Shown piece by piece: positions 8,623 to 58,008 of a stretch of DNA of 64,000 nt. The translations under genes and the position numbers were made by a program. Source of the DNA: Bacteroidaceae bacterium (GTDB taxonomy: Bacteria > Bacteroidota > Bacteroidia > Bacteroidales > Barnesiellaceae_A); assembly GCA_017532725.1 (NCBI GenBank), contig JAFXIZ010000016.1, positions 43,317 through 107,316 on the forward strand, read 5' to 3'. Numbering within the stretch: position 1 is the first letter of the stretch; each line of letters begins with the position of its first letter. Below the pieces are notes generated by a model that was not told the DNA's origin, made no database searches, and worked only from the letters and a program-made list of their open reading frames with translations.

Positions 8623-8696
8623 CGGGGTGTAGCACAGTTGGTTAGCGCGCCACGTTCGGGACGTGGAGGTCGGAAGTTCGAGTCTTCTCACCCCGA
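8623..8696 (+). tRNA. tRNA-Pro (anticodon CGG)
   Basis: Cloverleaf read by hand. Acceptor CGGGGTG/CACCCCG with discriminator A. D-arm GCAC-AGTTGGTTA-GCGC. Anticodon stem CCACG/CGTGG with loop TTCGGGA. T-arm GGAAG-TTCGAGT-CTTCT. 74 nt, no encoded CCA. Confidence 0.9.
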
Positions 8697-20524: not shown

Positions 20525-20567
20525 TATAGAAAAGCTTTTCTTGCAACAGTAATGTTGTAAAATCTAT

Positions 20568-20606
20568 AGCGATGGCGCATTGCAAGATGCGCCATCGCTC
20601 TTTTGT
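20568..20606 (+). terminator. intrinsic terminator after the cargo operon
   Basis: AGCGATGGCGCAT (20568-20580) pairs with ATGCGCCATCGCT (20587-20599), a 13-bp perfect stem, followed by CTTTTGTG. Confidence 0.65.
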
Positions 20607-20812
20607 GTTGCGAGCATTGTATTTAAATGTTTAGCGATGAGCCGATGTAGGCGTATGTTATACTTTTTCTTCACTCTGTTTCCCGTTAGGAAAATGCAAA
20701 GTAGGGTTTATGCAGTGGGGGTAAAAATAATAAATCGTTAAGCCTATAGCGTTGGTAAATTATTTATGCGTAAAAAGTTATTTAAAAATTTGGAGTCAAT
20801 TAATAAAAGCAG

Positions 20813-20820
20813 TACTTTTG
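20813..20820 (+). promoter_or_regulatory. -7 promoter box TACTTTTG for rplU-rpmA
   Basis: Matches TAnnTTTG, 83 nt upstream of the rplU ATG. Confidence 0.4.
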
Positions 20821-20903
20821 TGGGCTGATTCTGTTTCGGGCTTAAAAAGAGTTGTCACGATGACACCGCCCGGCAGAGATAACCTGAATATTAATAAATT
20901 AAA

Positions 20904-21242
20904 ATGTACGTAATCGTAGAAATTCAGGGACAACAATTCAAAGTCGAAGAAGGCAAGAAATTGTTTGTTCATTACTTGGGTGCCGAGCACGGTTCAGTAC
21001 TCGAGTTTGACAAAGTCCTTTTGGTGGACAAAGACGGTGATGTAACCGTAGGTGCTCCCACTGTAGAAGGCGCAAAAGTAGTATGTGAAGTAGTTTCGTC
21101 TGATGGTAACTATGGCAAGCCCGGTCTTGTAAAGGGTGAGCGCATCATCGTCTTCAAGAAGAAACGTCGCAAAGGTTATCGTCGTTTGAACGGTCACCGT
21201 CAAAGCTTCACCGAAGTGTTAGTTAAAGAAATAGTTGCTTAA
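20904..21242 (+). CDS. rplU: 50S ribosomal protein L21
   Basis: [23 protein letters not shown]...[23 protein letters not shown] is the canonical L21 sequence pattern. Confidence 0.95.
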
Positions 21243-21260
21243 CCTTAAAATTGTAGAAAA

Positions 21261-21518
21261 ATGGCACATAAGAAAGGTGTAGGTAGTTCTAAGAACGGTC
21301 GTGAATCACATAGCAAGCGACTCGGCGTTAAGGTTTACGGTGGTCAAGTAGCAAAAGCCGGCAACATTTTGGTTCGTCAAAGAGGTACAGTTCACCATCC
21401 CGGTGAGAACGTAGGTTTGGGTAAAGACCACACCCTCTTCGCTCTCGTTGATGGTACAGTTGTTTTCCGTAAAAAGAAAGACAACCGTTCGTATGTATCA
21501 GTAGAACCTATGAACTAA
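21261..21518 (+). CDS. rpmA: 50S ribosomal protein L27
   Basis: [29 protein letters not shown]...[10 protein letters not shown] is the canonical L27 N-terminus. Confidence 0.95.
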
Positions 21519-21543
21519 TCGGAAACGATACTGCGAAAAATAT

Positions 21544-21575
21544 ACGGTCGGAAGCATTGCTTTCGACCGTTTTTT
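21544..21575 (+). terminator. intrinsic terminator after rpmA
   Basis: ACGGTCGGAAG pairs with CTTTCGACCGT (11 bp, one G-U), followed by TTTTTGT. Confidence 0.65.
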
Positions 21576-21603
21576 GTATCTGTTATTCTGCTGTAGGGGG
21601 TGG

Positions 21604-28889: not shown

Positions 28890-29000
28890 AGTATATCTTT
28901 AATTTTTGTTGTATTTTTCCAAGTTTTATATCTCTATTGTCACAGTATATGTGCAAGGTAAGAACCTAATTGTATAATTCGTACAAAGGTAGTGAAAGAT

Positions 29001-29040
29001 AAGGGAATAAAAAACAAACTTGTCTGTTTTTTATTCCCTT
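29001..29040 (-). terminator. 16-bp perfect hairpin downstream of the ydeI-like gene
   Basis: AAGGGAATAAAAAACA (29001-29016) pairs with TGTTTTTTATTCCCTT (29025-29040). It lies about 100 nt after the stop at 29138. The gltX promoter box (minus-strand TACCTTTG, 28984-28991) follows immediately. Confidence 0.5.
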
Positions 29041-29137
29041 GTGGATTATTGATGATGTTGGTTGGATGTTTTTGCTGTGTTATGAGAAATATTTACTTGG
29101 CTTACAATGGGTTTGTTTGTGGTGTTTGGTTGACCTT

Positions 29138-29479
29138 TTATTTTGCCTCGGAGAGTGCTTTGCGTCCAACTTCGGTCATCAATCCTCGTTGCTCAAGGCT
29201 TGCACAACGCTGTTTATTCAGTTCGGTCCAATGGCTGTTTTTGCGACGTGGCAATAGGCGTTGCGCAAGGCGACCATCGGGTAGGCGTTTCAAGGTTGAG
29301 TCTATCCACCCATAGCATAGGGCTTCCTCGACAATTTCAATGTAAGGTATGGTACCCTCGACGGGTTGTTTGCTGCGCGAGGTTATTACCCAACATACAC
29401 GCTCGGTAGGGTGATTTTCTTCGAGCCATTGCCTCAACTCGGCTCGCGTGGTGCAGTGTAGAAGATTTACAATATCCAT
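29138..29479 (-). CDS. YdeI/OmpD-associated family protein
   Basis: RAELRQWLEENH...CWVI...IPYIEIVEEALCYGWIDS...SHWTELNKQ matches my recollection of the YdeI-type (DUF1801-related) family. Confidence 0.55.
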   Translation of the reverse strand: MDIVNLLHCTTRAELRQWLEENHPTERVCWVITSRSKQPVEGTIPYIEIVEEALCYGWIDSTLKRLPDGRLAQRLLPRRKNSHWTELNKQRCASLEQRGLMTEVGRKALSEAK

Positions 29480-29482
29480 CGA

Positions 29483-29791
29483 TTACTTCTTTGATTTTTC
29501 TTCATCCAGCAACTTGCGCTTTTGTTCTATCATTTCGCCCTCGCGCATACCGTTGTAACCACCCAATGAGCCGTCGGCTGCCACTACGCGATGACAAGGT
29601 ACATCGGGCGCAAAAGGGTTGCGTTTGAGAGCCTGACCCACGGCTTGCGCACTGCCACACCCAATGCGCCGAGCCAACTCGCCGTATGTGATGGTAGTCC
29701 CTGCCGGCACATCCAGCAGAGCCAAATACACCCGTCGCTGAAACGACGTTATCTCTGCCGATTGCATAACCTTGTGGCGTATATTGTTCAT
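29483..29791 (-). CDS. ogt: methylated-DNA--protein-cysteine methyltransferase (MGMT family)
   Basis: The track start at 29812 is a TTG, so I trimmed to the ATG at 29791 (MNNIRHKVM...). Active-site motif VPCHRVV, then TYGELARRIG and AVGQALKRNP. Confidence 0.8.
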   Translation of the reverse strand: MNNIRHKVMQSAEITSFQRRVYLALLDVPAGTTITYGELARRIGCGSAQAVGQALKRNPFAPDVPCHRVVAADGSLGGYNGMREGEMIEQKRKLLDEEKSKK

Positions 29792-29798
29792 TTCGCCC

Positions 29799-30020
29799 TT
29801 ACTCTTTCTCAAGTTCTTCGAGGAGTTTGCGCAGTTCTTCGTCGGTTTGTGTAAGGCGTGTTTTGCAGAATTTCAGCAGGGCAAGCGATTGCTTGGTGTA
29901 GTCGCGTAGCAAGTCTATCTCGCAGTTGGGATTTTGCATTTGGGCTACTATCTCTTCAAGTTGTTGCATCGCTTGTGTGTAGGTGAGTTCTTGGGTTGTT
30001 TCGGGGGTGTTATTCTTCAT
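29799..30020 (-). CDS. xseB: exodeoxyribonuclease VII small subunit
   Basis: Trimmed to ATG at 30020 (MKNNTPETTQELTYTQAMQQLEEIVAQMQN...). Helical and 73 aa. It overlaps the xseA 3' end by 11 nt. Confidence 0.8.
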   Translation of the reverse strand: MKNNTPETTQELTYTQAMQQLEEIVAQMQNPNCEIDLLRDYTKQSLALLKFCKTRLTQTDEELRKLLEELEKE

Positions 30021-56538: not shown

Positions 56539-56771
56539 AATTTACAAAAAACTGTTTGGTGCAAAAGTACAAAAAAAAAGCGTGATGCCCATACTTTATT
56601 ATCGTATTTCGCACAATAGTGTGCCAAAACATTGCAAATGTGCGCTGAACGGTATTGTAGGGCTGATATTTGCGCACACATTTTTCTCTCCTGTCGCTTG
56701 ATATGCAAACGGTTGCACCGTCGAATGCAAGAAAAATTGTACCTGTTGTTGTGAGGTTTGTGATGCGACAT

Positions 56772-56779
56772 TACCTTTG
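56772..56779 (+). promoter_or_regulatory. -7 promoter box TACCTTTG at the head of the ORF-free island
   Basis: Matches TAnnTTTG on the plus strand. No protein gene follows. The first hairpin of the candidate RNA begins 2 nt later. Confidence 0.4.
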
Positions 56780-56780
56780 C

Positions 56781-57165
56781 AGTGTGATTAACGAATAGAG
56801 CGTTATCACACTCCACACGAGTTGTGTGGACCCCATACAATAGGATTAAGGTAAAGATTGGTTTTATCATCACACTGAATTAGGTTAATAGGTTTTTAAG
56901 GTTAGATTGTTATTAGATAGGTAAATTTGATTGTTTGTAAGGTTTTTGATAGATTAAGTGTAAAAAGATTGTGGTTAGTATGAAGGGTTCCCGCCGTGAG
57001 GTGGATGACCTATAAAGCCGAAAGGCACGATTGGAGGTTGCAGTTTGACTGCAACCTCCGGAGAGAGCAAGAAACTCTTTCCTCAGAATACGCAAAGGAG
57101 AATGTCGTGAGATGTTCTCCTTTGTTGCTTTATATACCGACATCAAGATGTGGGGGGCTTGTCGG
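56781..57165 (+). ncRNA. candidate structured non-coding RNA of unrecognised family
   Basis: A chain of hairpins read by hand. 56781-56812: AGTGTGATTAACG/CGTTATCACACT. 56813-56829: CCACAC/GTGTGG. 56991-57004: CCGCC-GTGA-GGTGG. 57017-57026: GCC-GAAA-GGC. 57033-57059: GGAGGTTGCAG/CTGCAACCTCC. 57060-57082: GGAGAGAG/CTCTTTCC. 57094-57123: AAAGGAGAA/TTCTCCTTT. 57137-57165: CCGACA/TGTCGG. GNRA loops appear only on the plus strand. I saw no coding signal. Boundaries are approximate. Confidence 0.35.
56847..56971. repeat. degenerate direct repeats T(A)AGGT-N(1-6)-GATT(G/A) inside a C-free tract
   Basis: T(A)AGGT starts at 56847, 56881, 56889, 56897, 56918 and 56938. GATTG is at 56856, 56904, 56929 and 56967. 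Composite units are TAAGGTAAAGATTG (56847-60), TAAGGTTAGATTG (56897-908), TAGGTAAATTTGATTG (56918-33) and TAAGGTTTTTGATAGATTA (56938-56). There is no C on the plus strand from 56876 to 56989. Confidence 0.4.
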
Positions 57166-57390
57166 GACTTATGGCTTGTTGGTCGCAATGTGGCTTATAG
57201 ATTGTAAAATTCCGGTGACTATACTATTACCTGTTGCACGTTGTGGTGGTGCGCAGCCAACTGATGATTTATAGGCTTATTGATCAAAATTAGTAGGTAA
57301 AATCGGTGCAATCTGTTGATTTTTATATATTTGCACGATTTGCATTGGAAATGGATAAAAGGTTTGACCAAAATATGATAAGGCAATGAT

Positions 57391-57439
57391 ACATACACAA
57401 CGAGCAGCCACGGTGTTAGTGACTGCTCGTTGTGTATGT
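57391..57439. terminator. 17-bp perfect hairpin just downstream of the HTH gene
   Basis: ACATACACAACGAGCAG (57391-57407) pairs with CTGCTCGTTGTGTATGT (57423-57439). It lies 15 nt after the HTH gene stop (57454) on the minus strand and directly after a 12-codon mini-ORF on the plus strand. Confidence 0.5.
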
Positions 57440-57453
57440 GAGGTAAAACTCTT

Positions 57454-57873
57454 TTATAATTTACCTAAATCTATATCGAAATGTTGTGCTATCTTGCGTT
57501 CGATGCCTTGATTGATGGCAATCTGTGTGCGCATATAGTCGAGTTGGCTTATGAGTAGGTCTATCTTTTCGTGTTGTTTTTTGATAGTTGTCTCCAGAGT
57601 TGATATCTTTTCGTTGATGATTTGTTGCCCTTGTAGGGGTTGCAGTTCTTTGTTTACAAGCATCTCTCCCTTGCCAAGCAGCAGCCACGATGGGTTTAAC
57701 TCTGGGTAGGTATTTAGTATCTTTACTATGCTTTCGTACGACAAGCCTTTACCACTGCGGCGTTGTTTGCCTAACGTTCCTACGGCAATGTGCGTTTGTA
57801 CGGTGATTTTGTTGTCGTTTAGCCCCTTGTATTGCATAAACTTGTCAAGCCGGCTGAATAGTGTGTCTTCCAT
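57454..57873 (-). CDS. helix-turn-helix DNA-binding protein with C-terminal coiled coil
   Basis: N-terminal HTH (LNDNKITVQTHIAVGTLGKQRRSGKGLSYESIVKILNTYPELNPSWLLLGKGEM) resembles the CI-repressor-like HTH proteins common in Bacteroidales. The C-terminal half is heptad-like (ISTLETTIKKQHEKIDLLISQLDYMRTQI). It has its own promoter box, minus-strand TATCTTTG at 57906-57913. Confidence 0.7.
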   Translation of the reverse strand: MEDTLFSRLDKFMQYKGLNDNKITVQTHIAVGTLGKQRRSGKGLSYESIVKILNTYPELNPSWLLLGKGEMLVNKELQPLQGQQIINEKISTLETTIKKQHEKIDLLISQLDYMRTQIAINQGIERKIAQHFDIDLGKL

Positions 57874-57943
57874 TATTCCTTTTCGTTAATTTGGGATTTA
57901 TATCGCAAAGATAATTACATTTGCCGATTTTAAAAGCATTTAT

Positions 57944-57985
57944 TTAAAAAAATACAGGGTCGATACATAGATGTATCGACCCTGT
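57944..57985 (-). terminator. intrinsic terminator after the GH13 gene
   Basis: ACAGGGTCGATACAT (57954-57968) pairs with ATGTATCGACCCTGT (57971-57985), a 15-bp perfect stem. On the minus strand it is followed by ATTTTTTT. Confidence 0.7.
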
Positions 57986-58008
57986 TGTATTATATTAACC
58001 GTGCTATG

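Follow-up and report, generated by a model that had tools for sequence, protein, structure and literature searches.

CsrB, RsmY and RsmZ, which act on CsrA/RsmA, and CrcZ, which acts on Hfq/Crc, are RNAs of a few hundred nucleotides with their own regulated promoter and terminator, and they carry many short purine-rich motifs (GGA in hairpin loops, or AAnAAnAA) whose number is better conserved than the intervening sequence. A different kind of non-coding RNA is represented by GOLLD, ROOL, HEARO, OLE and raiA, which are free of open reading frames (ORFs), longer than a typical small RNA (sRNA), and built of several conserved helices with GNRA loops. Bacteroides species, which have neither Hfq nor CsrA, depend on small RRM-1 proteins (PMC13370968). 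In Bacteroides thetaiotaomicron, the intergenic sRNAs GibS and FopS (~65-145 nt) have a TAnnTTTG promoter and an intrinsic terminator (PMC7366714; PMC11697453), a single 5' seed followed by the terminator hairpin, and a position adjoining glycan-utilisation genes; their functional region is single-stranded, A/U/G-rich, and the best conserved part. Here we analysed a stretch of 64,000 nucleotides (hereafter, the window) from contig JAFXIZ010000016.1 of a Bacteroidaceae bacterium, in which the interval 56784-57133, lying between lysS and a gene for a helix-turn-helix (HTH) protein, is very probably a functional and independently transcribed non-coding RNA gene, with hairpin domains at both ends and a cytosine-poor domain between them.

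The RNA of this locus resembles GibS and FopS in its intergenic position, promoter, terminator, glycan-locus neighbourhood and A/U/G-rich, best-conserved region, and has the short words UUUAAGGUUA, UAUUAGAU, and GUUUUUCAUA in common with the FopS R1' consensus. On the other hand, it is 350 nt long, its motifs, in 6-9 copies, occupy an inner region with a structured domain on either side, and it comes from a different bacterial family, with neither a match in Rfam nor a significant overall alignment to these sRNAs. The size, the separate promoter and terminator, and the many short motifs of conserved number recall CsrB, RsmZ, and CrcZ, yet the motif is WWAGGUW/AGAUUG, it occurs in a region without conserved hairpins, and the partner protein is a putative one. 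With the large structured RNAs it shares the ORF-free character, the length, several conserved helices, and GNRA loops, but here only local hairpins were found, the core is without conserved structure, the distribution is narrow, and no Rfam family was matched.

The RNA gene and its relatives

An earlier model reading of the bare letters (hereafter, the original prediction) had proposed that the ORF-free gap between lysS and the HTH gene holds one large structured RNA of about 0.9 kb. The gap itself was borne out in size and coordinates, with 915 nt between the start codon of lysS (ATG, 56538) and the stop of the HTH gene (57454), both on the minus strand. The extent of the RNA was not, since the unit covers only ~350 nt, 56570-56770 being control DNA and 57134-57390 a spacer found in the same species only; the remaining ~560 nt of the gap are this promoter/operator DNA and species-specific spacer (Table 1). 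A search with the family profile in nhmmer matched 56780-57131 (E 5e-92), the one copy in the 64-kb window, and homologs range from 334 to 357 nt.

Table 1. Features of the lysS-HTH gap and its right-hand neighbour, in window coordinates
Feature	Position	Strand	Remarks
-7 box of lysS promoter	56562-56569	-	TACTTTTG on the minus strand; read from sequence; kept in relatives
Divergent promoter/operator DNA	56570-56770		Not part of the RNA
14-bp palindrome	56704-56717		TGCAAACGGTTGCA (consensus TGCAAACGTTTGCA); candidate operator of the RNA promoter
-33 element	56749-56751	+	TTG, 20 nt 5' of the -7 box; invariant in the upstream alignment
-7 box of RNA promoter	56772-56779	+	TACCTTTG (TAnnTTTG); in 21/21 loci examined
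P1, 5' hairpin	56781-56812	+	56781-93 pairs with 56801-12; core pairs kept; two pairs changed on both sides
Predicted transcript, ~350 nt	56784-57133	+	5' end from promoter (±3 nt), 3' end from terminator T-tail, both inferred
P2 hairpin	56813-56829	+	56813-18 pairs with 56824-29; 5/6 pairs with compensatory changes
Central cytosine-poor domain	56832-56985	+	~150 nt, GC skew +0.70; no conserved secondary structure
Block A	56835-56870	+	ATACAATAGGATTAAGGTAAAGATTGGTTTTATCAT; most conserved segment; 36/36 identical to L001
P3, two-part hairpin	56985-57011	+	Outer 56985-89/57007-11; inner 56991-95/57000-04; GUGA loop
P4 hairpin	57017-57026	+	GCC-GAAA-GGC; 4/5 pairs covary
P5 hairpin	57033-57059	+	12 bp, perfect in the window; 7/11 pairs covary
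P6 hairpin	57060-57082	+	Outer stem conserved; inner GCAG-GAAA-CUGC stem in most relatives
Intrinsic terminator	57092-57133	+	15-bp stem with GUGA loop (57092-57125), then T-rich tail; terminator scan
Species-specific spacer	57134-57390		Not part of the RNA; contains the hairpin 57138-65 of the original prediction
Near-perfect hairpin, 21 bp	57391-57439		Just after the stop of the convergent HTH gene
HTH gene, 139 aa	57454-57873	-	XRE/P22 c2-type HTH domain and long C-terminal helix

The promoter of the RNA fits the Bacteroides primary sigma factor consensus, TAnnTTTG at -7 with TTG near -33 (PMC7366714), and is kept in all homologs, the -7 box taking the form TA(C/T)(C/T)TTTG throughout the loci examined. 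At the other end, the terminator stem is followed on the plus strand by TGCTTTATAT, and a T-tail stands 3' of the last stem in every homolog. Moreover, 12 of the 14 terminator pairs covary with 99.5% of cells paired, and the hairpin holds its shape while its sequence changes, both in the pairwise alignment with L001 and in the covariation analysis. Across the helices, G·U pairs outnumber A·C by 65 to 13 in the 3' domain and by 60 to 23 in the 5' domain; because of this excess, the same helices being worse on the other strand, the RNA is assigned to the plus strand. The original prediction had likewise read the element on the plus strand and given it a promoter of its own, and both points hold, with the promoter box and T-tail conserved on that strand only and the -7 box and -33 TTG conserved in homologs. 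It had also seen no gene downstream on this strand that the RNA could regulate in cis and, in fact, the terminator is followed by the spacer and then by the convergent HTH gene, in place of the same-strand 3' ORF of a riboswitch or cis-acting leader. Intergenic sRNAs of B. thetaiotaomicron have been defined by their own promoter and a Rho-independent terminator (PMC7366714); with both predicted here, the RNA gene is by that standard a canonical intergenic sRNA gene, though a long one.

Searches for known families agreed with the original prediction that none applies, and the RNA is a new, previously undescribed family. At the gathering thresholds of Rfam 15, whose models cover tmRNA, RNase P, SRP and 6S RNA, riboswitches, Bacteroidales motifs, and large RNAs, the whole window gave only a tRNA (8623-8696), and at E<=10 the gap region gave hairpin noise only, the best being mir-6 with 21 bits against a threshold of 58; ARAGORN found no tRNA or tmRNA in the region. 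TRF detected no tandem array at a minimum score of 30 and no gene follows on the strand, both of which set the RNA apart from the ToxI component of type III toxin-antitoxin systems.

Regarding distribution, a LysS scan of 185,579 species genomes yielded 80 loci, one of which (L001, LysS 91% identical) was similar to the gap, with the promoter box and the cytosine-poor stretch nearly identical in the alignment; RNA and HTH gene were absent at the 79 other Bacteroidales lysS loci, including those of Coprobacter, Parabacteroides, Muribaculaceae, and Bacteroides. Further relatives (LysS 86-97% identical) were taken from a protein collection and their contigs fetched; the distinct RNA sequences number ~14 in all. 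Every locus arranged as amylase-HTH gene-gap-lysS holds the RNA, loci close to Candidatus Barnesiella excrementipullorum included, and both RNA and HTH gene are also absent in a relative at 86% LysS identity with a different neighbour upstream of lysS. Phage and plasmid collections searched by blastn contained no similar DNA, and in scans of viral contigs an 18-mer taken from the conserved blocks had two chance matches inside coding sequence, while a 21-mer of the same origin had none. In metagenomes, the 19-base pattern AAGGTAAAGATTGGTTTNAT (20 positions, one N, from the invariant block) gave 47 matches; 45 were rejected as chance occurrences inside protein-coding genes, and the two real ones (L113 and L121) have the same synteny as the window. 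This pattern recurs in unrelated environmental contigs (L108-L154) because it can encode common peptides, e.g., KGKDWF and GKVKIGF, and conserved-word scans of such composition pick up coding sequence. As judged by sequence comparison, the RNA gene belongs to a narrow family, is single-copy in the window and fixed at one locus, and is vertically inherited at the amylase-HTH-[RNA]-lysS locus within one lineage of uncultured animal-gut Barnesiella-related Bacteroidales.

The same comparison bears on whether the interval might be a decayed protein gene or a neutral spacer, which we consider extremely unlikely. Mechanical ORFs of 91-112 aa do overlap the region and its G-poor minus strand has stop-free runs of up to 109 codons; however, such long runs arise because that strand is without G, the mechanical ORFs gave no Pfam match at E<=1, and conservation follows the RNA helices and the promoter and terminator signals rather than codons. 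Furthermore, the true spacer next to it evolves at a much higher rate, a conserved ORF is lacking, and the length of most indels is not divisible by three (6/6 in the comparison with the closest relative; 10/10 and 12/12 elsewhere). The original prediction had named a degraded protein gene as a finding that would speak against it, and none was found, in view of the absent Pfam matches, the frame-breaking indels and the lack of a conserved ORF.

Local hairpins around a cytosine-poor core

All eight hairpins listed by the original prediction are present in the positions it gave, and seven are conserved in relatives as parts of the RNA, while the last (57137-65) falls in the species-specific spacer. 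It had made its case depend on conservation and covariation in relatives, and both were found. Compared with shuffled sequences, folding z-scores were -9.7 for 56770-57460 on the plus strand, -7.6 on the minus strand, and -6.7 for 56783-57133. A plain MAFFT alignment of 14 sequences, folded with RNAalifold, gave 52 pairs, 30 of them with compensatory changes, and single-sequence folds have the same layout everywhere, namely P1, P2, a long open region, P3 to P6, and the terminator.

For helix statistics, the sequences were realigned with two covariance models, with slid-partner and shuffle controls. Such alignments are fitted to the model and the sequences are mutually related, a caveat to be read together with the following values, with which the plain alignment agrees in direction: in the 3' domain pairing extended to 95.1% of cells, compared with 45-52% for slid partners, and changes on both sides were seen in 33 of 48 pairs, against 14±2 in shuffles (0/500 shuffles reached 33), whereas the 5' domain had 82% of cells paired against <=48% with slid partners. 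All 3' helices covary. Indeed, P5 shows compensatory change in the pairwise alignment with L001, and in P3 all five outer pairs and three of the five inner pairs covary. P3 is missing in three Barnesiella-like sequences, which have an insertion before the terminator instead. In these (L105, L106, and L121), the insertion is of ~20 nt and lies between P6 and the terminator, and when they are folded singly the P4 region may pair over a long range with a GCAGGGC segment, so that P5 is enclosed.

The supported helices are independent local hairpins and not a compact large fold, an architecture expected of a regulatory or sponge-type sRNA more than of a large RNA resembling a ribozyme. The original prediction had favoured a large RNA of unknown family, folded compactly; that reading, with a biochemical function intrinsic to the RNA, now seems improbable. 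The folding energy is very low relative to shuffles, several abutting hairpins with GNRA loops are all conserved and covarying, and no known family matches, as would be expected of such an RNA; nevertheless, no conserved multi-helix junction, long-range helix or pseudoknot emerged, only local hairpins being supported, the Barnesiella-like variants do without P3, only one narrow lineage has the family, and the ~150 nt that are best conserved have no conserved secondary structure. One helix that would close off the central domain, pairing CCCCAUAC with GUAUG..GGG, was good in the window and in L100, but it is not conserved across the aligned homologs and was rejected.

This central domain, absent from the description in the original prediction, is the best-conserved part of the RNA. 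Among seven same-species contigs it has no substitution, while the 3' loops and the downstream spacer vary, and the core of block A, AAGGTAAAGATTGGTTT, is kept in 13 of 14 sequences, the Barnesiella-like ones included. RNAalifold applied to columns 56832-56985 returned a single weak hairpin of invariant bases (GGUAAAG with UUUUAUC, -1.7 kcal/mol), and the domain is taken as single-stranded from this lack of conserved structure, not from a positive prediction. It is built of two words, WWAGGUW (UAAGGU, AUAGGU), with 6-9 copies per homolog, and A(A/G)GAUUGU, with 2-5 copies per homolog, in 14/14 homologs; the window has seven AGG-centred motifs (WWAGGUW) and four GAUUG motifs. Against dinucleotide shuffles, both are enriched in the window, with six AGGT versus 1.9±1.2 (p~0.003) and four GATTG versus 0.22±0.46 (p<0.001). 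Motif counts persist even where the alignment fails (L105 and L121), and a short motif in many copies, conserved in number across species as in sponge RNAs, was found in all 14 homologs. The idea that the AAGGU motifs mimic Shine-Dalgarno (SD) sequences or 5' splice sites was dropped; pairing of AAGGU with the Bacteroides anti-SD would extend over just 4 nt, and Bacteroidota make little use of SD pairing.

Repeated motifs could also act in the DNA, with TAAGGT/GATTG as sites for the XRE-type or another DNA-binding protein and the hairpins as incidental, and the HTH gene does co-occur with the element in every locus. Even so, we regard a DNA-level element as very unlikely. The motifs are all on one strand, non-palindromic and irregularly spaced (7-31 nt), and the strong strand asymmetry in cytosine content points to selection on a transcript. 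In addition, a conserved promoter and a covarying terminator bracket the element, the G·U pairs of its helices would be A·C mismatches on the opposite strand, and a proper palindrome, the candidate operator, exists separately upstream.

Putative partners of the central domain

Our favoured reading, held tentatively and by analogy, is that the RNA is a multivalent protein-binding (sponge or hub) platform for Rbp-type proteins. The central domain would offer a multivalent single-stranded platform, for which the most plausible partners would be the RRM-1 family RNA-binding proteins (RbpA/B/C), which in Bacteroidota stand in for Hfq and CsrA; these proteins would be titrated or recruited by the RNA, as CsrB and RsmZ do CsrA or CrcZ does Hfq, while the terminal hairpins would stabilise it. 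The level of the RNA may be tied to a signal through the operator, via a sugar or purine regulator of the LacI type or the XRE-type regulator encoded alongside. RbpB of B. thetaiotaomicron binds single-stranded RNA, and its best in-vitro motif, GUAGGAUA, exclusive to the bound probes, consists of G, U, and A only; a threefold repeat of this motif was bound with a Kd of 5.1 µM, and a C/U-rich motif was not bound (bioRxiv 10.1101/2021.04.27.441718). Block A includes AAUAGGAUUAAGGU, which resembles that motif. Moreover, peaks of RbpB in crosslinking and immunoprecipitation (CLIP) lie on the 5' region of FopS, with the consensus GTGTTTTTCATAGTATTAGATTTAAGGTTAACAAA (PMC11697453), and this consensus and the central domain of the window have ten 7-mers in common against 2.0 in shuffles, a sharing that is significant in 10/14 homologs.

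Several points weigh against a protein-binding platform of this kind. Transcription of the RNA gene was deduced from its sequence, and a thermodynamic model predicts A-U and G·U pairing of the AGG motifs, with a probability averaging 0.48. The likeness to GUAGGAUA spans only a 6-mer, the 7-mer sharing with the FopS consensus fails in the four most distant homologs, and local alignment to that consensus is not significant alone (score 20-22 against a null of 16±2.5 with a maximum of 27). Furthermore, a search for the RNP1 motif found no RRM-1 gene in the window, and the invariant block of 36 nt is longer than a protein site needs and would suit base pairing too.

In this context, it is possible, if somewhat doubtful, that the RNA is instead a multi-seed base-pairing sRNA, whose central domain would be an array of seeds like those of GibS and FopS-R1 (UUAAGGUUA, UAUUAGAU, and in some species GUUUUUCAUA), directed at translation-initiation regions, e.g., of SusC-like transporters and glycoside hydrolases of polysaccharide utilisation loci, with Rbp proteins as helpers at most. 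The mRNAs of susC and GH13 genes are targeted by FopS and GibS with single-stranded seeds (PMC11697453; PMC7366714), and the gene studied here adjoins a starch-type locus (SusE, SusF, and GH13 amylase). The 7-mers held in common with the FopS R1' seed consensus, above shuffles in 10/14 homologs, and the length of the invariant block, suited to long pairing, would speak for seeds as well, and the L098-type sequence GTTTTTCATAAGGTTAA, with a 12-nt deletion, matches the FopS R1' consensus at 17/17 positions. Nonetheless, the anti-start-codon CAU of FopS occurs in one subgroup only, its place being taken by GAU or AAU in the window and the relatives nearest to it, and perfectly complementary k-mers are no more frequent in the 64-kb window than chance would give (six 11-mers against ~4 expected), with no convincing AACCUUA-type site before the window genes; the CAU confined to one subgroup and the lack of targets within 64 kb weigh slightly against base pairing. 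Besides, ~150 nt conserved with 6-9 repeats far exceeds known seeds, and the absence of an Rfam match means that no FopS or GibS model was matched either, if Rfam 15 holds one. An RNAduplex target scan of the window was uninformative, as the long query gives huge loops.

Whether acting as a sponge for Rbp proteins or as a concatenated array of FopS-like seeds, the RNA might be a multivalent partner dedicated to the RRM-1 (Rbp) proteins, the first such RNA in Bacteroidota, forming a two-gene module with the XRE-type regulator via the palindromic operator, a composite proposal that we would put forward as speculative. To our knowledge, no antagonist RNA of the global RRM-1 proteins has been described. 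If the proposal is true, Bacteroidota would gain a functional counterpart of the CsrB/CsrA or CrcZ/Hfq circuits, which have been thought lacking there. Post-transcriptional control in this phylum is poorly understood, and, apart from GibS, FopS, MasB, and a handful of others, its sRNAs have no known mechanism; well-supported structured ends, a motif array that recalls the in-vitro motif of RbpB as well as the FopS seed, and a recognisable operator together make a concrete candidate circuit and a sequence model for finding more. The family is narrow, its hosts are uncultured and its function is proposed rather than demonstrated, and, within these limits, uncultured gut Bacteroidales carry lineage-specific regulatory RNAs beside glycan-utilisation loci.

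Upstream palindrome, HTH gene, and flanking sequence

The control region upstream of the RNA contains a palindrome present in 14/14 distinct relatives with no alignment gaps from it to the -7 box, its distance to lysS being variable. At <=1 mismatch, a single copy of its 12-bp core lies 5' of the RNA in 28 of the 29 loci that carry the RNA; in L001 the copy has two mismatches. At <=2 mismatches the palindrome is single-copy in the window. It has the form of a LacI-type operator, i.e., a 14-16-bp palindrome with GCAAAC half-sites and a central CG, and the operators of MalR of Streptococcus pneumoniae and PurR of Escherichia coli have the same core, GCAAACGTTTGC, with the central CG (operator sequences in PMC4451989 and PMC3159470). 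In S. pneumoniae, amylase, pullulanase, and maltose genes are under the control of MalR, and the RNA here adjoins an amylase locus; unlike the MalR and PurR operators, the palindrome is ~54 nt 5' of the -7 box and not over the promoter. No LacI-family gene was found among the 16 window ORFs scanned with Pfam, and the adjacent XRE-type protein is an equally good candidate for its binder as a LacI-family regulator.

The 139-aa product of the HTH gene had no sequence match in Pfam, NCBIfam, PADLOC or PDB, and its family comprises only 121 relatives among 5.8 billion proteins, some of them with a peptidase S24 domain, as in phage repressors. Its AlphaFold model (pLDDT 87) consists of a five-helix N-terminal domain and one long helix (residues 79-131), the former superposing on the DNA-binding domains of P22 c2, 434 Cro, TP901-1 CI, and SinR (TM-scores <=0.8 by target, with weak E-values). 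The HTH label given by the original prediction is right because the fold search recovers an XRE-type domain, with P22 c2, 434 Cro, and TP901-1 CI as matches. By tblastn, the gene is next to the RNA in all 19 loci of relatives searched and in none of L002-L080, with the qualification that the same-species contigs were fetched by means of the HTH gene itself, and the co-occurrence of RNA and HTH gene could be due to shared descent alone. It is plausible that the HTH protein binds the upstream palindrome; no copy of the palindrome was found in the gene's own promoter region. On the minus strand at 57905-57995, a perfect 13-bp hairpin with a T-run, the amylase terminator, is followed by TATCTTTG, the promoter box of the HTH gene, and because these two precede it the HTH gene is its own transcription unit. 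Its last codons (57458-57474) read GAUUUAGGUAAAUU on its mRNA, the same type of word as the central motifs of the RNA, which may be chance.

On the lysS side, the gap is flanked by genes for lysine-tRNA ligase, gpsA, and pgi, and on the other side by the HTH gene, the gene of an alpha-amylase (GH13, carrying a T9SS sorting domain), and SusF/SusE-like genes. The lysS promoter box was found on the minus strand where the original prediction had placed it, and it is the left edge of the divergent control region, outside the RNA. The accompanying remark that nearly all other gaps in the window are under 250 bp is not strictly true: the stretches 20525-21603 and 28890-30009, each of >1 kb, have no ORF of >=120 aa and only ORFs of 85-113 aa, unless these are genes.

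At the far end of the gap, everything beyond 57133 is unalignable with L001. The spacer 57134-57390 has no similarity outside the same species, and within it the identity is 95.9-97.8%, more divergent than the RNA. It includes, at 57326-57333 on the plus strand, a second TAnnTTTG-like box, TATATTTG, ~60 nt 5' of the hairpin 57391-57439, which could give a short plus-strand transcript, in a stretch not conserved outside the species. That hairpin, which accounts for the spurious miRNA-like Rfam hits, is probably the terminator of the HTH gene; it has no clean T-tract on either strand, and in L082, of the same species, its arms are perfectly complementary over 49 nt. In L091 (at 2401-2417 of that locus), the 3' end of the RNA lies ~15 nt from the HTH stop, and one hairpin may terminate both the RNA and the convergent HTH transcript.

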